DNA of 64,000 bases, from contig OZ242296.1 of assembly GCA_965207735.1 (NCBI GenBank), positions 3,936,001 to 4,000,000 on the forward strand, given 5' to 3'. How positions within the stretch are numbered: position 1 is the first letter of the stretch; each line of letters opens with the position of its first letter. Under the pieces are notes generated by a model. The model was not told the DNA's origin and ran no database searches. It saw only the letters and a program-made list of their open reading frames with translations. This document shows positions 8,052-46,126 of this stretch, piece after piece. The stretch comes from Candidatus Versatilivorator sp. Its GTDB lineage: Bacteria; Acidobacteriota; Terriglobia; Versatilivoradales; Versatilivoraceae. The position numbers were made by a program, and so were the translations under genes.

Positions 8052-9765
8052 CTCGTCAGCTTGAACTTCAGGTCCAAGGGTTCGTTGGCCGTATAGCGAC
8101 AATGGTTTCCCTGCTCACCATAAGTGTGGTAGGAGTTGCGATCCTAGTAGGTCTAGCCCTCTGCTTGCCGGGACTATTCGACCTATGGCCAGGTCCAAGT
8201 TGGACTGGATGGGTCATGATCGCCGTATTTGGGGTTTTTACGGCATTAAGTTTGTTTCGAGGAACCGCGTTGAAAAATGTATTCCTCAAACTCCAGTCAA
8301 CAATAGCTCAGAGGCTCGCAACGTACATTCACTTGCGGTAATCCTTGGGAAGACGGTTAACGCAAGGCGGCTAGCGTCTACGGGATGCGGAGAGGAATAT
8401 CGTTTTCCGGCGGTCCCCGGTGTCGCTAATGGTCCATACAACACGCCTCAACTAAGTTCCCCCGCACTTTGCCGTCTTTGATAAGGCTCGCTTCCAACTG
8501 GTCGCAGATCGCCATTAGCTCATCCAGTTTGGCGATAATGCGGTGTTGCTCGGCGAGGGGTGGAAGAGGAAACACATAGGCTGCGAGGCCCTTGCCGGTG
8601 AAATGTTTGATACCGGTTCCGGTGAAATACTCGGCCAAACGTCCGTCATCGGCACTCGCCCGGAGCGCCCTCACAAAATAATCGCTAGCTACGAGGTTCA
8701 CAAAACGAACACGATGAATCGCTTTCTGAAAGTAGATATCGGTTTCGCGGGTGTCCCACACCGCCGCTCGACCAGGCTCGCCTCCCTCGCATATCAACAC
8801 ATCGCCGAATCGAAGCGCGAACTCTGGAAGCTCCGAATCTTCGAATCGCATCTCCAGCAGGTTGGATAGATCGAAGTCGAACCATCTCACGTTGATGTTG
8901 CGGAGATATTTGTGAGGCGTTCCTTTGTTTTTGGACTTGTCGAGCATCTTACCGAGGCGGGAGTCAGCTACCGCGCCCACCTTCACCCAAGTCCACGATT
9001 CGGGAAGCTCAAATGAGCCAGTGCGTAGAACAGGAATCTTTTTGCGCTTCAGCAATTGCGACGCCGGCTCATCGTTTGGGTCCTGCGGCACCAGTTTGCC
9101 GCGTACAGCCAAGTTAAGGATGGTCTGGCGCAGGGCCTTGATCTGGTCGGGACGGGTGGTGATCGGACCAAGGCTGTTGACGGCAAAGGTGACATCATGC
9201 CGGAATGTCGCCGGGTCGGGGTCAGGTGCGTTGAGGCGAGCGAGGCTTGCCGTCGCCAGCCGATCCCGCGTCGCCTCCCGGTCAGCCCGCGCTGCCTCCA
9301 GCCGGTCGCAGAGCGCCATCAGTTCTTCGACTTTGGCGACGATGCGGTGTTGTTCGGCAAGGGGTGGGAGCATCACCGGAATTTCTAGCGCTTTGGCTTG
9401 GTTAAGCTTTGACCTCGTTGCACCAACCACTCGCCCTGAGTAATCAAAGACATTCAAATAGTGGACCAAGTACGCGTTGGAAACGAGGACACCGCGAAAG
9501 ACATGGGCATGGTTATTCACCCAAGACGTGCCAGCGATCAGATAGGCTTTAGGCCGTAGGGAATCGAAAAAAGGTACGCCGTCTTCGCCGAGTAGTACAA
9601 GCTCCTCATCGAAAATGTATTCGTCGATCCAACCTTGCTGTTGTGTCGCACCAAAGTATGGAAACAGTTGTGAATGGGACTTCCCCGCAATCCTCCGTTT
9701 GCGCTCAGTTCCGTTTACGGGCTTTCGCATGTAGTCCAAACACACAGCAACCAGTCCGAGTCTAG

Positions 9766-11345
9766 GAGTCTGCGCCGCAGGACGATTTCGGAAAGTTCAA
9801 GAGCGAGAGGCTACTGCGCAAGGCCGGTTCCAAGGAGTGCTTGGGAGCCACTTGGGCGTTGATAGAGTCTCAAGCGTCCTGTGGGCTCCCACAATGGGCG
9901 GTTGAGGACCTCCGTGGCCCTGGGTATTGGGTGGAAATCCCTTGCTTCAGGCCGCCATCAACGCACTCATCCTCTTGATGTTGAGGGCCAGACACACCAA
10001 GTCCCACTCCCCCTGCACTGATTGCAAGCCCCGCAGACTGAACCGTCGGAATCCCAGCCCCTCCTTGATCCACCCATGAGGGGCTTCGGCAATCCACTTC
10101 CTCCGCCGATACTCCACCTGACCGGCTAGGCTGGCCAGCTTCTTCCTCATACGACTCTTGGCCGGATGCTTCCTGGGATCGATCTCTACCGCCCGCTTCC
10201 CCTCGCGCCCCAGCGCAACATAACCGTCCACTCCTCTCTCTTCCAGGGCCTGCAAGTCCTCCTCATTGCAGTAGCCCGCATCCGCCAGCACCTGTTTCGG
10301 TATCTCCTGGAAGCTCTCCTCCACCTCCTCCAGCAACTCCATCATCTGCCCCTGATCGCTCGCCTGCGCCGTTACCTCGGTGGCCACAATGATCTGGTGC
10401 TCTCCGTCCACCGCCACCTGCGCGTTGTAGCATTGCTGGAACCCCTCGGTGGAAGTCTTCATGATCCGGCTTTCCGGATCGGTGAAATTACTCTGCGCCT
10501 TCTCCTCCGGTTCTCCGTAGGCCCGCTTGTAGGGCCGTCGTGCTTTCGGGTTGCGGTCCTGTCCCGGTTTGCGCCCCCGCTCCTCATCGGCCTCCCGCTG
10601 GGCCGCCTCCAGCCGCTGCTTGGCCGCCTCGATCGCCGCCAGCCGGTCCTCCCGCCGCCGCAACTCCTCGGGCAACTCATCCCCACGCCGGTCTTCCCCG
10701 TACCGCTCATCTTCCTCCCGGTCCTCCCGCCGCGCCTTCTTCAACAACTCATGGATCTCTGCCTTCAGTTGCCGCTCCCGCTCCTTCATCCGACCATAGC
10801 TCATCGCCTTGCGCCGGCTCGCGTTCGCCCGCACCTTCGTCCCGTCGATCCCCAATCGCCCCAACCCCACCATCCCCATCTCCCGCGCCAAGCTCACCAC
10901 CTGTACGAACAGCTGCTTGAAGTCCTTCAAATGCCGGCGGCGAAACTCGCACAACGTCCGATGCTGCGGAAAGTTCCCCGCCGCCAGCATCCGAAACGCC
11001 ACGTCTTCCTCCAGCTTCCTCGCGATCTTGCGCGACGAGAACACCCCTGTCGCATAGGCGTAAATCAACACCTTCACCATCATCCGCGGCTCGTAGGGCG
11101 AGTTGCGCCTCCCGTCCTCTTCATAGGGCCGGTAAAACGCTCTCAACTCCAGCCCATCCACCAACTCACTCACCTGATGGGCCAAGTGCCCTTCCGGTAC
11201 CCACTCCCCCAGGTCCGGCGGCAACATCAACAGTTGCTTCGGCTGATACGGGCGAAACCTTGTCCCCATCCACCACCTCCTATGATGTCTCTAAGCCCGT
11301 TATTGTATCATTCAGCCCTGCCCGGGTTTTCTGCGGCGCAGACTC
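9766..11345 (-). mobile_element. IS1182-family element
   Basis: 15-bp IR GAGTCTGCGCCGCAG; CTAG on both sides (9762-9765, 11346-11349). Confidence 0.92.
9947..11269 (-). CDS. IS1182-family transposase
   Basis: YEPRMMVKVLIYAY, SSRKI, IDGTKVRANAS, NFTDPESRIM and LADAGY motifs. Confidence 0.95.
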   Translation of the reverse strand: MGTRFRPYQPKQLLMLPPDLGEWVPEGHLAHQVSELVDGLELRAFYRPYEEDGRRNSPYEPRMMVKVLIYAYATGVFSSRKIARKLEEDVAFRMLAAGNFPQHRTLCEFRRRHLKDFKQLFVQVVSLAREMGMVGLGRLGIDGTKVRANASRRKAMSYGRMKERERQLKAEIHELLKKARREDREEDERYGEDRRGDELPEELRRREDRLAAIEAAKQRLEAAQREADEERGRKPGQDRNPKARRPYKRAYGEPEEKAQSNFTDPESRIMKTSTEGFQQCYNAQVAVDGEHQIIVATEVTAQASDQGQMMELLEEVEESFQEIPKQVLADAGYCNEEDLQALEERGVDGYVALGREGKRAVEIDPRKHPAKSRMRKKLASLAGQVEYRRRKWIAEAPHGWIKEGLGFRRFSLRGLQSVQGEWDLVCLALNIKRMSALMAA

Positions 11346-11362
11346 CTAGCCCGCATTTCTCA

Positions 11363-12231
11363 GTGCGCCATGGAAAGGCGCCTTCTTCCAACGGGTGCGA
11401 AACCCGTCCAACAACTGTCGCTCCGGTTGGTAGCAGCCAGGGCGGATCATGGAGGTAACGATATGGTCTGAAGCCCTCTGGTGTCAAAGGGCCGCTTAAG
11501 GCGGTTCAGCGAGCATGCGGGCCGGAACGCGAGTGAACGTCGAGCAGGCCTCGAAACGGGCAATGCGGGGGCCGACCCACCTGAGAAATGGGGAAGGCCG
11601 AAGACGGAGGGGGAAGCGAGCGACGCGGGCACCCCTTTGGACCCGCCGGGGTAGTGGCGCTGGCACGCATGGAAGGGGAAGAAGGCAGCAACATGGGAAG
11701 CCCTGTGGGTGGTGAGGCACGCACCGAACCGGAAGCTCGCGAGAGTCAGTCTAGGCCGACAGGGTGGCGGAGAGGCCTGTAGTACCGGAGAAGCCGGGTA
11801 ATACCGGTGGAGGGAAGGGGCCTCAGGTGAGGAGCGGTGACCGAAGGGGGAAGGGTCCCGGGAGTGGCGAAAGCCTGAAACCCCGACCAAAAAAGGGCCG
11901 GAGACTCCGGAAGCATCACATGCAAAAGTGAAAGGGTCGTCGGAGGAGGACGGCGTCGTCAGGGCATCAACAGGCCTGGCGGCAACCCGGGAGCGGAAGT
12001 GGATGGAGTGGGGGACGGGTGCCAATCCCATAGGAGTCGTCCACGGATGCGAGCGGGGACCTGTGTGCGAGACGCATGATCCCACTGGAGAGCCGAGATG
12101 CGGGAAAACCGCACGTCCGGTTCGGAGAGCGGGGACTGGAAACGTGATAAGGGAGCCGGACTGAGGCCCGAAGCGAAAGCGACGGAATAGCCACCGGACC
12201 CTATAGTCAACGCGCCAGTCCTCGACTCTAC
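11363..12231 (+). ncRNA. ORF-less group II intron (IIB-like), 869 nt
   Basis: 5' GUGCG; domain V GAGCCGAGAUGCGGGAAAACCGCACGUCCGGUUC (~12089-12123); long domain VI ending CUCUAC; precise removal restores the IS IR; EBS1 UGAGAA (11582-11587) complementary to exon UUCUCA. Confidence 0.92.
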
Positions 12232-12453
12232 CCAGAGTTCGCACAGGAGCGGTAAAAGGGGCCATGGAGGCATTTGAGGCCGAGTTTAACAACGTTGGTG
12301 GCTGGATCGGTAGGCAAAGGCCAACAGCGGAGGCTTCTGAGGCTCTCCGAGGAACCTCAGGCGGCATTTTCCCTCGAAAACAGCGACACCTCTGCCATCG
12401 GGCCTGGTGGCCGCGTCTTCAAGGGCCAGGAGTGACGGTCGGGTCAGGGCACC

Positions 12454-13821
12454 TCAGGGCGGCAGGTGAGCCCAAGCGATGCGGAACTCCCTCTGGTAAG
12501 GACATCCGGAAGCCATGGCGACCTTGATGCGACGGACCGAGATGGTGACCTGAGCGCCGATCTTGAGCAGTTTGAGTCTGATGGAACCGACGGTGGCCCG
12601 GGCCAGGCAGGTGGATTGCAGCGCCCGCCGGCGCAAGCCCTCCACCAGCACATAGGCGAAAGAGGTCATCAGGAGCCGGAGCTGATTCGCCCGGAAGGAG
12701 TGGGTGGAGGTGCGATCGGCAAACAGGTCGAGTTGCTGCTCCTTGATGCGGTTTTCCATCTCACCGCGGGCACAGTAGATCTTCTCATAGAGGAACTGGG
12801 CGGGGTAGTCCTGGACCGACAGAGAGGTGACGACGAAGCGGGGGTTGGGGCCGCGGGGCAGGACCTCGGCTTTGGCGACCAGGCGGCGCTCGTGGGACCA
12901 GCTCTTGTGAGTGCGGTAGGAGAGGTCGGTGAAGATCCGGGCGGGCTGCTGTTGCTGGTCTGAGAGGGCCTGGGCCTGAGCCAACTCGGGGGCGATGGCG
13001 TCTTGGAGGCGGGAGTTGCGGGCCAGGCCGAAGAGATAGTCGACCTGATGCTGCTCACACCACCCCATCAGCTCCTCACGGGCAAAGCCGGAGTCGGCCC
13101 GCAGCAGGATCTTGACCTGAGGCCAGACACGCCGTAGGCGGGAGACGATGCGCTGGACCTGCTCCAGAGCGCCGGCGGAGGCATCGATGTTGGCGGGTCT
13201 GAGCAGGGCCGAGAGCAGATGGCGGCCCGAGAAGATGTAGAGGGGCAGGTAGCAGTAGCCTCGGTAGTAGCCGTGGAAGAAGCGGTCCTCTTGTTCCCCG
13301 TGGAGGGGATCGTCAGTGGCGTCGAGGTCGAGGATGATCTCATCGGGGGGTTGGGGATGGGCTTGCAGAAACAGTTTCACCAGGAGGGCTTGCAAGGCCT
13401 CGGGGTCGTGGTCAATCTTGTGGTAGCGGGTGGGGCCTTGGGTGGGGGCGTGTTCGAGTCGGTTGAGGGTGCTCTTGCCTGCCAGGGGAGGCGAGTCGCC
13501 ACGACGGCCTTTCTCTGAAAACAAGGCCATGAGGGGATCGTGACGGAGTTGGTCGTGGTCGATGAGATCCTCGTAGCCGAGGGCGATGCCACGGATGCGC
13601 TGAGCGATGAGGGTGCGCAGGCTGTATTGGGTCCGCTTGGGGTCGCGGTGATCGGTGAAACAGTCGGCCACCTGGTCGGAGAGAGATAAGCCCCGATCCA
13701 CCCGGCGCAACAGCAGGGAGCCGGCATCGGAAGTGATGGGACCGCCGTCGAAATCAGCCACCACGCGGCGGCGGCCGTGGGGTTCAAACTCCAGGGGTTT
13801 GGTGTTACACTGTGTCGGCAT
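12454..13821 (-). CDS. IS1380-family transposase
   Basis: FDGGPITSDAG, LDLDATDDPLHGEQE, LRADSGF and YCARGEMENRIKE motifs. Confidence 0.95.
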   Translation of the reverse strand: MPTQCNTKPLEFEPHGRRRVVADFDGGPITSDAGSLLLRRVDRGLSLSDQVADCFTDHRDPKRTQYSLRTLIAQRIRGIALGYEDLIDHDQLRHDPLMALFSEKGRRGDSPPLAGKSTLNRLEHAPTQGPTRYHKIDHDPEALQALLVKLFLQAHPQPPDEIILDLDATDDPLHGEQEDRFFHGYYRGYCYLPLYIFSGRHLLSALLRPANIDASAGALEQVQRIVSRLRRVWPQVKILLRADSGFAREELMGWCEQHQVDYLFGLARNSRLQDAIAPELAQAQALSDQQQQPARIFTDLSYRTHKSWSHERRLVAKAEVLPRGPNPRFVVTSLSVQDYPAQFLYEKIYCARGEMENRIKEQQLDLFADRTSTHSFRANQLRLLMTSFAYVLVEGLRRRALQSTCLARATVGSIRLKLLKIGAQVTISVRRIKVAMASGCPYQREFRIAWAHLPP

Positions 13822-14238
13822 CGGTTCTCCTTTAAGAATCTGGTTAACTCCTTAGACAAGAGTATTTTACCAGATTCCGAGAACCGATGCTTCCTACCTC
13901 TGGTGAGAAATGCGGGCTAGTTGGGAACCAGCCACTTGGCAGGTCAACCGCTTGCTGTGTTTCCTTAAGCCGGGCCACGGGCTTTTGCTTCCCAATCTCC
14001 CCCGCCTTCACCAACCGCGCTTTCTCTGCCGTGATTCGCTTCAGCAGTTCCGAGGCCGGTTCATCGTTCGGGTCCTGTGGCAGCAGTTTGCCGCGTACCG
14101 CCAGGTCGAGAATGAAGCGGCGCAGGCGATGAACGGATTCGGGAGACTGAATCAGTCGATCGAAATCATCGAAAAGAAAGTCGATACTCATCGCTCGGCT
14201 CTGACGAACAGCACGCATCTCGTCAGCAGTCACCTTGT

Positions 14239-14601
14239 TTATTCTTCGGGCGGACCCAGTTCGGCAAGCAGGGTTTGCGCGATTTGGCGCAGTTGCGGCA
14301 GGTGGTTTTTGGCGTCGTCCCATACAGGTTCGGGGTTAACGCTGGAATAGCCGTGGATCAGCAGGTTGCGGAAGTCGATTACCTTGCGTTTCCGAGGCAC
14401 CCGTTCGGCAAGTTCGGGGTTGGATGGGCTCAGAATGTTCAGTGCTTCGCCAATGATTTCGAACTTCCGTTCGACGGCCGCTTGGGTACGGGAATCACTC
14501 GCGTAGGCCGCTTGATCCATACCCTCTGTGAAGCGCTTAATGGCCTCGCCCGCTTGTTCGACGTCCGCCAGCAAGACGCGAGGATCAGGATGCATAGACA
14601 A
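14239..14601 (-). CDS. HepT-like HEPN (DUF86) ribonuclease toxin
   Basis: AVERKFEIIGEA and RNLLIHGY (Rx4H) motifs. Confidence 0.9.
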   Translation of the reverse strand: MSMHPDPRVLLADVEQAGEAIKRFTEGMDQAAYASDSRTQAAVERKFEIIGEALNILSPSNPELAERVPRKRKVIDFRNLLIHGYSSVNPEPVWDDAKNHLPQLRQIAQTLLAELGPPEE

Positions 14602-14896
14602 GTTCGCGGGATTTGTTGATGGCGGTGCGGAGGTAAAGGCTGTTGATGGCAGCGGTTTCGACGAGGTCGACGCGACGGCCCAGGGCCGTTTTCAAGGCTT
14701 CGGCGAAGTCGAAGAATTGATCGAAGGGCGACAGGTCGCTTTCGGGTTCGAATTCGACCAGGAAATCTGCGTCACTTGTTTGTGGATCGAAGTCCGTGCC
14801 GCGCGCGGCTGAGCCGAAGACTTCGAGGCGCGCCACGTGGTATTGGCGGCAGAGTTCAATCAGCCTGGCCTTTTTGTCGGCGATGGCGGTGTGCAT
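14585..14896 (-). CDS. MntA-like minimal nucleotidyltransferase antitoxin
   Basis: VFGSAARG...SDADFLV and GRRVDLV motifs; overlaps the HEPN gene. Confidence 0.9.
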   Translation of the reverse strand: MHTAIADKKARLIELCRQYHVARLEVFGSAARGTDFDPQTSDADFLVEFEPESDLSPFDQFFDFAEALKTALGRRVDLVETAAINSLYLRTAINKSRELVYAS

Positions 14897-17588: not shown

Positions 17589-19046
17589 CTATCTCAGCAG
17601 CGCCTCCGCCAATATCGCTTTCAACTGCTCGCGCAACCTCGCGGCTTCGGCCTCGGCTGCGTTCAGCTTGGCCAGCAGTTCTTGCGGGTCGCCGTGGTCG
17701 TCTTCGGAGGTGTGCGGGTTCTTGATGTCCAGGTTGTAGCCCCGCGCCTTCACCTCGCCAACCGTTACCTTCCAGGCACGGTCCGTTTGCTTGCGATCTT
17801 TGCGCTCCGCTCCGCCCCACCAGTCGATGCAGGGTTGCAGGTGCTCCAGCCGGATGGGCCTGGTCATGGAGTAGGCTTTCTGGCCCTGAGGCACCAGGTG
17901 CTCGTAGAACCAGATGTTCCGGGTGGGTTCGCCCTTCTCGAAGAAGAGTAGATTGGTGCCGATGGAGGCGTAGGGTCTGAAGACCGAGTTGGGCAGGCGG
18001 ACGATGGTGTGCAGGTAACACTCCTCCAGCAGATGCTCCTTAAGCCGTGTCTTGACGCCCTCTCCGAACAGGGTGCCGTCGGGCAGCACCACGGCGGCAC
18101 GCCCGCCGGGCTTCAACAATCGCACGATCAGAGCCAGGAACAAATCGGCGGTCTCCTTGGTTCGGAAGTGCTGGGGGAAATTGCTCTCGATTCCCTCTTC
18201 TTCCTTGCCGCCGAAGGGCGGATTGGTGAGCACGATGTCCACCCGGTCCTTCTGTTCCCAACTGATATAGGGCCGGGCCAGCGTGTTGTCGTGGCGGACG
18301 AAGCTGGGGTCTTCGATGCCGTGCAGCAACATGTTGGTGACACACAGCATGTGGGGGAGCTGCTTTTTCTCTACGGCGCGCAGGGCGGCCTGCATGGTGT
18401 GCTCGTCCTCGGGACGCCTGACGTAGCGGGTGCGCATGTGGCGCAGGGAACAGGTCAGGAACCCTCCGGTGCCGCAGGCCGGGTCGAACAGGGTTTCGCC
18501 GGGCTTGGGGTCGATGCGGTCGGCCATGAAGGCGGTAACGGCTCGCGGGGTGTAGTACTCGCCGGCGTTGCCGGCCGATTGCAGATCGTTGAGGATCTGT
18601 TCGTAGATGTCACCAAAGTGCTGGCGGGCAGTCAGGTCGTTGAAGTCGACGTCGTTGATCTTGTTGACCACTTGGCGCATCAACTGGCCCGACTTCATGT
18701 AGTTGTAGGCATCCTCAAACACATCACGCACGACGCGCCCGCGGTCCCCGGGCTGGCCGCTCGGGCGGAGATTCTTCAGGGCAGGGAACAGGTCGTTATT
18801 GATGAAGTCAAGCAGGGCATCGCCGGTGGAGCCCTCGGGGTCGGCCGCCCAGGTGCGCCACTGGAGGCGCTCGGGAATCGGCGAGGTGTAGTCGGACTGC
18901 ATCAACTCCAGTTCCTGATCCTGATCGTCGATGATCTTGAGAAAGAACATCCAGCACAACTGGCTGATGCGTTGGGCGTCGCCGTCCACGCCGGTATCCA
19001 GGCGCATGATGTTCTGGATGGATTTGACCTGGGTGCGGACGGCCAT
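17589..19046 (-). CDS. hsdM: Type I R-M m6A methyltransferase
   Basis: GEYYTPR, DPACGTGGFL and NPPF motifs. Confidence 0.97.
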   Translation of the reverse strand: MAVRTQVKSIQNIMRLDTGVDGDAQRISQLCWMFFLKIIDDQDQELELMQSDYTSPIPERLQWRTWAADPEGSTGDALLDFINNDLFPALKNLRPSGQPGDRGRVVRDVFEDAYNYMKSGQLMRQVVNKINDVDFNDLTARQHFGDIYEQILNDLQSAGNAGEYYTPRAVTAFMADRIDPKPGETLFDPACGTGGFLTCSLRHMRTRYVRRPEDEHTMQAALRAVEKKQLPHMLCVTNMLLHGIEDPSFVRHDNTLARPYISWEQKDRVDIVLTNPPFGGKEEEGIESNFPQHFRTKETADLFLALIVRLLKPGGRAAVVLPDGTLFGEGVKTRLKEHLLEECYLHTIVRLPNSVFRPYASIGTNLLFFEKGEPTRNIWFYEHLVPQGQKAYSMTRPIRLEHLQPCIDWWGGAERKDRKQTDRAWKVTVGEVKARGYNLDIKNPHTSEDDHGDPQELLAKLNAAEAEAARLREQLKAILAEALLR

Positions 19047-30316: not shown

Positions 30317-30920
30317 ATCCACGAAGACACACGAAGAACGACGAAGGGCCACTAAGGCGTTGAGGTGAACCGCGACGGGATACCAAGGTCGCGAAAGGAT
30401 TATCGATTTCTGATAGTTTCACTCTCGAATGATCCGCCCGGCAGGGAAGGGGCCGGACTGTTTTGTAATTGATAATCCCCGGGCGAACGCCCGGGCGACC
30501 CATTGAGCCGCGGAGCGGCGGCAGCAGGTAGCCGTGGGCGTAAGCCCATGGAAAGGGGTAGCTCCACGTCGAGCCGCGAAGGCGGCGACAGCAGAGGGCC
30601 GAAAGCGCGAGGCCCCGGAGACCGGCTCTCCTGAGACAAAAGAAAAAGAGGAATCCACGAAGGGCCACGAAGAACGACGAAGGACCACTAAGGCGTTGAG
30701 GTGAACCGCAACGGGATACCAAGGTCGCGAAGGGATAGCCGATTTCTGATTGTTTCACTCTCGAATGATCCGCACACCAGGGAAGGGGCCGGACTTACCT
30801 GAGAATATGCTGCTTTAGCCGGCTTCCTTGAGAGCGGCGAAGCCGCGGCAGCACTTAGCCGTGGGCGTCAGCCCATGGGAAACGTCGCCTATGGGTTCGA
30901 GCCGCGTAGGCGGCGGTAGC
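30317..30920. repeat. Composite REP/BIME-like element: ~143-bp direct repeats (30317-30459, 30653-30795) around GC-rich palindromes
   Basis: 336-bp period; AGCCGCG..GCGGCG and CCGTGGGCGTAAGCCCATGG hairpins; inverted copy at ~43980-44325. Confidence 0.85.
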
Positions 30921-43979: not shown

Positions 43980-44325
43980 TTCGTGGACAACTCTTTTTTC
44001 TTTTGTTTCAGGAGAGCCGGTCTCCGGGGCCTCGCGCTTTCGACCCTCTGCTGTCGCCGCCTTCGCGGCTCGACGTGGAGCTACCCCATTCCATGGGCTT
44101 ACGCCCACGGCTACCTGCTGCCGCCGCTCCGCGGCTCGATGGGTCGCCCGGGCGTTCGCCCGGGGATTATCAATTGCTAACAAGTGTCGCCCCCGCCCTG
44201 GTGTGCGGATCATACATAGAGTGAAACAATCAGAAATCGACAATCCCTTCGCGAACTTGGTATCCCGTCGCGACCAACCTCAGCGCCTTAGTGCCCCTTC
44301 GTCGTTCTTCGTGCCCCTTCGTGGT
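43980..44325. repeat. Inverted copy of the composite REP-like element at 30317-30660
   Basis: Reverse-complement match including the palindromes and flanking unit. Confidence 0.85.
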
Positions 44326-46009: not shown

Positions 46010-46126
46010 GACCCCGGGCTTCCGCCCGGGGCTACACGAGGCCGCAGCTACGCTGCTCGATAGGGATGGCCTTTAGGCGACCTTGTCACAGGCAACCCAC
46101 GCCAACCGCCGCCTACGCGGCTCTCC
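46010..46126. repeat. Degenerate REP-like palindromes
   Basis: CCCCGGGCTTCCGCCCGGGG and CGCCGCCTACGCGGCTC resemble motifs at 30476-30920. Confidence 0.6.

Follow-up and report, generated by a model that had tools for sequence, protein, structure and literature searches.

How does a group II intron that carries no RT gene come to lie 13 bp inside the inverted repeat (IR) of an IS1380 element, and how could such an intron spread and change its targets? The question is raised by one locus of a 64,000-nucleotide stretch of "Candidatus Versatilivorator sp." DNA, the whole of which is referred to here as the window. The answer favored here, with a probability of about 0.8, is that this ORF-less intron, present in 28 near-identical copies 13 bp inside IS1380-type IRs, retrohomes with an RT borrowed from a related intron and acquires new targets through recombination of its domain I.

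Two group II models of Rfam match the 869-nt intron, as had been anticipated when the check with Infernal was proposed: RF02003 for domain I (11389-11532, 80.8 bits) and RF00029 for domains V and VI (12088-12231, 41.2 bits). The intron has the GUGYG 5' end, the AY 3' end, the AGC-triad domain V, and the bulged A in domain VI by which group II introns are recognized, together with exon pairing by EBS1, EBS2, and EBS3 as judged by covariation. In the available text of PMC3753933, an alpha' sequence at the tip of a stem-loop and a five-nucleotide domain V loop are given as marks of IIE/IIF introns, and both are present here in the form of an 8-bp alpha/alpha' match and a GAAAA loop. Domain V has one base more than that of the co-resident ORF introns. 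Membership of group IIC, whose introns seek hairpins or attC sites and lack EBS2, was rejected because EBS2 covaries with the target. The initial annotation had found no RT ORF in domain IV, which holds for the entire intron (11363-12231), and had suggested a decayed start of an intron-encoded protein (IEP); the latter is recovered at the DNA level, where a collinear alignment to the ORF intron L118 scores 50 against a maximum of 44 in 200 shuffles, but is weak at the protein level (c-E, 0.054).

Excision of the intron in silico restores an intact 19-bp IR equal to that at 13898-13916, with the CTAG duplication at both ends. The host element (11350-13916; 1,698 bp after intron removal) has an IS1380 DDE transposase, terminal IRs, and a short target duplication, as the family does. 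The intron is antisense in its host because the transposase is encoded on the minus strand. Together with the Rfam matches, the restored IR confirms the earlier placement of an 869-nt intron 13 bp inside the IS IR and antisense to the transposase, and the opposite IR, as had been noted, is an identical and empty target over 19 bp. Two sequencing runs of unrecorded type, possibly from the source sample, covered all 30 bins and contained the occupied IR as well as the empty one, which argues against an assembly artefact and for nothing more. The coordinates of the individual features are collected in Table 1.

Table 1. Features of the intron, its host element, and the adjoining element (positions within the window)
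Feature	Position	Strand	Basis or remark
IS1182-family element, 1,580 bp	9766-11345	-	Transposase at 9947-11269; abuts the intron-bearing IR
CTAG target duplication	11346-11349		Common to IS1380 and IS1182
5' exon	11350-11362	+	13-bp tip of the IS1380 IR on the downstream side of the transposase
IBS2	11349-11353
Unpaired bases	11354-11355
IBS1	11356/7-11362
ORF-less group II intron, 869 nt, GUGCG...AC	11363-12231	+	IIE/IIF-type ribozyme; Rfam matches, fold
alpha, UGUCGCUC	11416-11423	+	8-bp complementarity to alpha', read from sequence
EBS2, CGGGC	11557-11561	+	Pairs with GCCCG at -14 to -10; covariation, register peak at -14
Putative delta C	11581	+	Precedes EBS1
EBS1, UGAGAA(A)	11582-11588	+	Hairpin loop in fold
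Predicted alpha', GAGCGACG	11618-11625		Tip region of a stem-loop
EBS3 (G)	11654	+
Decayed IEP start, domain IV	about 11844-11955	+	DNA-level alignment
Domain V	12090-12123	+	AGC triad, 5-nt loop GAAAA
Domain VI	12126-12229	+	Bulged A at 12225
IBS3 (C)	12232
Split IR, inner 6 bp	12232-12237	+
IS1380-family transposase, 455 aa, open frame	12454-13821	-	410.6 bits (cutoff, 180)
Empty second IR	13898-13916	-	Identical over 19 bp; CTAG at 13917-13920

The stack of insertion sequences splits an apparent specificity gene of type I restriction (Methylase_S match at 8426-9745), and a similar-looking piece of a specificity gene without a Pfam hit lies at 13844-14323. The surrounding type I restriction-modification locus (14239-14896 and 17589-19046) includes a HepT/nucleotidyltransferase pair and HsdM near the split gene. 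Elsewhere, the window contains four Acido-Lenti-1 RNA matches (30506-30878, 44091-44136, and 46012-46057).

The 5.26-Mb genome contains 28 ORF-less copies of the intron that are 99.6 to 100% identical, 22 of them without any difference, and the genome-wide search that had been called for placed every copy at the same position of an IR, 13 bp in, and none in an unrelated target. The upstream flank is CCCGCATTTCTCA in 27 copies and a one-mismatch version of it in the remaining copy, and a C follows on the 3' side in all 28. Six copies are hosted by IS1380 elements (four at the downstream end and two at the upstream end), 18 by MITEs of 130 to 243 bp with the same IR as IS1380, and four by solo ends. 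Counting the RT-bearing sister described below, 29 of the 220 IR-like sites with no more than one mismatch are filled, exact sites more often (27/147) than one-mismatch sites (2/73; P = 6e-4), and 14 of the 21 full-length IS1380 copies are still empty. The common site, the different hosts, and the RT-bearing sisters lend good support to the view of the intron as a non-autonomous retroelement that homes to IS ends, except that most of the hosts are MITEs and not insertion sequences. At one MITE (G000:C1:572744-572986), the end reads IR, GTGCGCC, and then MITE at unchanged length, apparently the scar of an intron lost through short microhomology.

Target recognition was analyzed with related introns from 61 searched genomes (32 with a match), GTDB contigs (72 loci kept of 267 relatives), and 20 fetched stretches. 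The 5' ends of 132 of 152 introns were parsed, giving 110 distinct targets and 29 EBS types. EBS1 pairs with its targets at 0.85, compared with 0.49 after shuffling, and EBS2, taken as the five bases after CCUCGAAA, pairs with positions -14 to -10 at 0.59, compared with 0.40 (29 EBS types); for both, P is <1e-4 by shuffling or permutation, a procedure that overstates significance because related introns are not independent. EBS3 forms a Watson-Crick pair with the first base of the 3' exon at 95 of 104 distinct sites. The comparison shows that EBS1 (-7/-6 to -1), EBS2 (-14 to -10), and EBS3 (+1) read the target. The last G of CTAG (11349) is position -14 and is paired by EBS2, so that the RNA covers 11 of the 13 bases of the IS tip plus the final base of the CTAG duplication, rather than the whole 13-nt tip as first proposed. 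A G at -14 was not enriched in occupied sites (23/28, compared with 100/120). As regards a possible recognition of the TA in the target duplication by the RT, sites with this TA were occupied in 25 of 116 cases and the others in 2 of 31 (P = 0.067), and across 24 types positions -16 and -15 are T and A at only 0.50 and 0.43.

The folding check that had been suggested for these motifs gave a divided result. EBS1 UGAGAA, as originally proposed, lies in a hairpin loop and covaries with the targets, but both positions offered for an EBS2 of AUGCGGG fall in internal stems by fold and covariation. The first (11515-11521) does not vary among siblings that have different targets and belongs to the paired core of domain I. 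The second (11563-11569) is a strand of a domain I stem in which GCGGG pairs with CCCGC at 11642-11646; this stem is complete in 8 of 12 distinct variants, retains four of five pairs in the rest, and shows compensatory changes, and the match of the candidate to the targets is 0.415, compared with 0.418 after shuffling (P = 0.61).

Separate comparison of the two ends of the ORF-less intron shows that it is a mosaic, with a 5' part that goes with RT introns of the same target and a 3' part that goes with all the other ORF-less copies. In a domain I tree of 24 rows from which EBS1 and EBS2 had been removed, introns group by target, and monophyly of the nine ORF-less rows is rejected (p-AU, 2e-87). 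In the tree of domains V and VI, the nine rows come together (support 85/89, not starred) within a 100/100 branch that includes L051, L079, and L118, apart from all the co-resident ORF introns; one of the rows, L092, forms a long branch, perhaps from being mis-cut. Over these domains the ORF-less copies are 97 to 100% alike and about 65% identical to the co-resident ORF introns. An ORF-less C-type intron of the source genome (G000:1135573) is 97.7 to 98.7% identical to the ORF-bearing C intron over nt 1 to 410 compared with 65.6% over domains V and VI, where it is 98.7% identical to the intron of the window. In four cases, the parent switches at nt 321-324, 385-428, 397-410, and 444-462 (P from 7e-7 to 2e-16, for a best split chosen after the fact). 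A single 3' body is joined to domain I modules with at least four different targets, each module being similar to an RT-bearing relative, and the EBS1 sequences found on it are UGAGAAA, UGUAAUU, UGUCUUU (L166), and UGUGUWU (L044 and L045). The same 3' half occurs in 6 of the 13 other genomes of the genus, and the best match of the decayed IEP start, to L118, is consistent with a separate origin of this half. A scan of metagenomes for the ORF-less domain V returned no matches. The genome also contains a 117-nt form of the ORF-less C-type intron (G000:C1:4260992-4261108) that has lost internal sequence but retains precise ends within the repeat that it targets.

Descent of the ORF-less copies from a co-resident RT intron by a single deletion was rejected on the basis of the mosaic and of the 65% identity in domains V and VI. 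We infer recombination as the probable cause of the mosaic, with gene conversion and template switching indistinguishable here. It is also conceivable that homing is real and that targets were changed by point mutations in the EBS loops of one ORF-less lineage, without any exchange of domains, a route published for Thermosynechococcus elongatus (in the accessible text of PMC2882425) and in keeping with the fast variation of these loops; however, this is unlikely given that the domain I tree still groups by target with EBS1 and EBS2 masked, that the ORF-less C-type intron is so unequally related to the ORF-bearing C intron at its two ends, and that the parent switch is sharp at informative sites.

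To be mobile by the established mechanism, an intron without its own gene would need an RT from elsewhere. The source genome has 19 RT matches and 15 ORF-type introns that are close relatives. One of these, an intact sister at G000:5004992 that encodes a 456-aa RT with a YADD motif, has the same EBS1 and EBS2, lies in a diverged IS1380 IR, and is present as a single copy. The other 14 have other targets; 13 are B-type (one frameshifted), directed to a short repeat, and one is C-type, directed to another repeat. The B-type target (e.g., C1:409328) is a CACGAAG-type repeat, which presumably resembles repeats beside GxxExxY genes; its motif matches at about 335 places, compared with about 40 for the C-type target. 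Two further RT genes (G000:C1:3462635-3463159 and 4583245-4583715; open frames of 317 and 320 aa) are not close to these introns. The sister RT has only the RVT_1 and GIIM domains of Pfam and no En domain, and its YADD motif contrasts with the FADD of g2. It is likely to be of class F, as judged from percent identity to three references: 44 to 46% for the two from g3/class F and 30% for the one from g1.

As in the TeI3 type, the genome thus contains an intact RT intron related to the ORF-less copies, and we infer mobilization in trans by a borrowed RT. The 3' half is so dissimilar to those of the co-resident RT introns that each of their RTs is only a candidate for binding it. In genome G011, the ORF-less 3' half has 12 matches, alongside nine intact RT introns, of which the eight that were read all have another EBS1, and the one same-target RT copy seen there is truncated; on these sequences, the driver need not be a same-target sister.

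Contigs from six RNA runs (four studies) cover the intron, including the domain IV specific to the ORF-less form, and leave the IS flanks mostly uncovered; these contigs mix strains and copies, and neither strand nor level can be read from them. No exon-exon or circle joint was found among the joints listed for the six runs, in contigs only. The search for a promoter feeding the intron found only a sigma-70-like match, antisense and inside the intron. The intron might splice without a borrowed group II RT, or might now be immobile and its copies the product of a finished burst, for which the extra domain V base, the divergence of the 3' half from the co-resident RT introns, and the small share of sites filled could be cited; this is quite unlikely, as the 22 identical copies imply recent spread, the 3' half recurs across the genus, and mobility by the established mechanism requires an RT.

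Retrohoming with a borrowed RT would proceed as follows. Spliced RNA would be bound by an endonuclease-less class F-like RT and would reverse splice into single-stranded DNA at the replication fork, where the inserted intron RNA would be copied from the nascent lagging strand. New targets would be gained when recombination, through gene conversion or RT template switching, places the domain I of a sister onto the gene-less body.

With dnaA at 3.54 Mb and a turn of GC skew near 0.7 to 0.8 Mb, 24 of the 28 copies are in the favored orientation, in which they have the sense of the leading strand and the lagging-strand template is entered (P = 1.8e-4), and exact sites are filled in 24 of 66 cases on one strand and 3 of 81 on the other (P = 2.5e-7). 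The bias is weaker for two other guesses of the origin (22/28) and by local skew (21 to 23/28). Family B introns showed no clear strand bias (10/13, P = 0.09; 6 to 8/13 by local skew). The GC skew opposes the dnaA-based replichore at 4.0 to 4.5 Mb and 2.8 to 3.1 Mb, which suggests inversions in a repeat-rich genome. The bias fits insertion at the replication fork by an intron that lacks an endonuclease, a pathway stated for RmInt1 and RmInt2 in the accessible text of PMC4615759. A lagging-template bias, combined with one constant position in either IR of an IS, is the pattern of the RmInt2 type.

Both ends of IS1380 are used, as expected if each copy offers two sites, but 25 of 61 two-ended elements are filled once and none twice (2.5 expected; P = 0.045). 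The two ends of an IS or MITE are opposed, so one of them is always on the favored strand; the two sites are in effect one because strand choice picks the end. Matching target duplications are retained in 21 of 25 intron-bearing elements, the 15 occupied 243-bp MITEs comprise 14 distinct sequences, and one intron variant was found in two different hosts. Strand bias and host diversity suggest that the introns came after the elements had landed and seldom travel with them, and it is plausible that insertion immobilizes the IS, which is compatible with this late arrival. Entry into one or a few elements followed by passive multiplication through IS1380 transposition or gene conversion, which the identity of 22 copies, the retained duplications, and a pair of identical intron-bearing MITEs (5027596 and 5213340) that could reflect joint movement would favor, is very unlikely in view of hosts that include either end of the IS and of the MITEs, solo ends, and varied MITE sequences, of the variant shared by different hosts, and of a strand bias that carriage would not yield.

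The left end of IS1182 lies directly against an IS1380-type IR in 9 of the 12 full-length copies in the source genome. IRs adjoining IS1182 are intron filled in 7 of 9 cases compared with 20 of 138 elsewhere (P = 1e-4), and on the favored strand of arcs with clear skew the counts are 6 of 6 and 11 of 32 (P = 0.004). Outward transcription, a common site preference, and age are candidate explanations of this excess.

Related introns are found at the ends of other transposons. Seven RT introns lie 13 bp inside elements of 2,083 to 2,085 bp with matching duplications, one of which was tested and is IS1634 (275 bits; cutoff, 100). L118 and L124 are in IS1380 ends, and L099 is in a 2,325-bp element whose transposase is below the family cutoffs. 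Specialization of the lineage on IS ends alone is unsupported, as many relatives have no IR or IS1380-like transposase nearby. The ORF-less introns L051, L161, L055, and L057 (909 nt; 721 to 723 nt), from other families of the class, follow TA(A/G)CCC-type sites. Head-to-tail tandem arrays of related introns occur at L105, L113, L114, L117, L081, and L126, several with a putative U at EBS3, and the L117 array mixes copies of 719 nt and 1,999 nt.

A broader proposition, offered tentatively and at somewhat less than even odds, is that the gene-less body is a genus-wide modular vector that repeatedly takes up the targeting domain of whichever RT introns are available, whose RTs need not match the target, and is thereby redirected among IS1380, MITE, and IS1634 ends and short repeats. 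If this is true, it would represent a natural targetron swap system that perhaps limits several transposon families, and domain I swapping would explain how ORF-less introns outlast saturation of their targets. The mosaic suggests that halves of ribozymes with only about 65% identity at the 3' end are able to combine. With the 28 copies, the choice of strand where targets are paired is put to a natural test across a whole genome, covariation fixes EBS2 for a little-studied IIE/IIF-type lineage, and sisters with known targets make RT promiscuity and IS blocking directly testable.

Homing to IRs and trans-driven spread of ORF-less introns are already published strategies; the domain-swap mosaic was not found in print. 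In a search of openly accessible literature, no paper was listed that dealt with introns at the ends of IS1380 or MITEs, and none with a change of target through exchange of domain I. Bacterial ORF-less introns are called rare in a review (PMC4424553, as far as its accessible text goes). The comparisons that follow likewise rest on the accessible parts of the cited papers. The endonuclease-less RmInt2 of Sinorhizobium meliloti GR4 homes into both IRs of ISRm17, and its authors propose that two IR targets double the number of sites and keep one on the lagging strand (PMC4615759 and PMC5894124). The 869-nt intron is likewise of an endonuclease-less type and found in both IRs of an IS; however, RmInt2 is of class D, has its own RT, and is present in seven copies, whereas the intron described here is ORF-less, class F-like, and mostly in MITEs, and, unlike in RmInt2, its EBS2 crosses into the target duplication. 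Ni.ha.I1, listed under group g3/bacterial class F (PMC3552965, Table S2), has an RT 44 to 46% identical to that of the sister and resembles the present intron in the core of domain I, in domain V, and at the 3' end, but encodes its own RT (PMC3552965). For c-Ha.de.I1, a gene conversion of approximately 700 bp between intron subgroups has been described (PMC3522654); intron copies recombine there, as is proposed here, in a passage that does not mention retargeting of an ORF-less body. A parallel in mode of spread is with TeI3/TeI4 of T. elongatus, where ORF-less copies are more numerous than those with an ORF, depend on driving in trans, and form families defined by EBS (PMC2882425); the present introns share these traits, driving in trans being the likely one among them. 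The TeI3/TeI4 ORF-less introns, in contrast, had one deletion origin and diverged in parallel (PMC2882425), whereas here the ORF-less 3' body comes from another sublineage, and its domain I follows differently targeted RT relatives.
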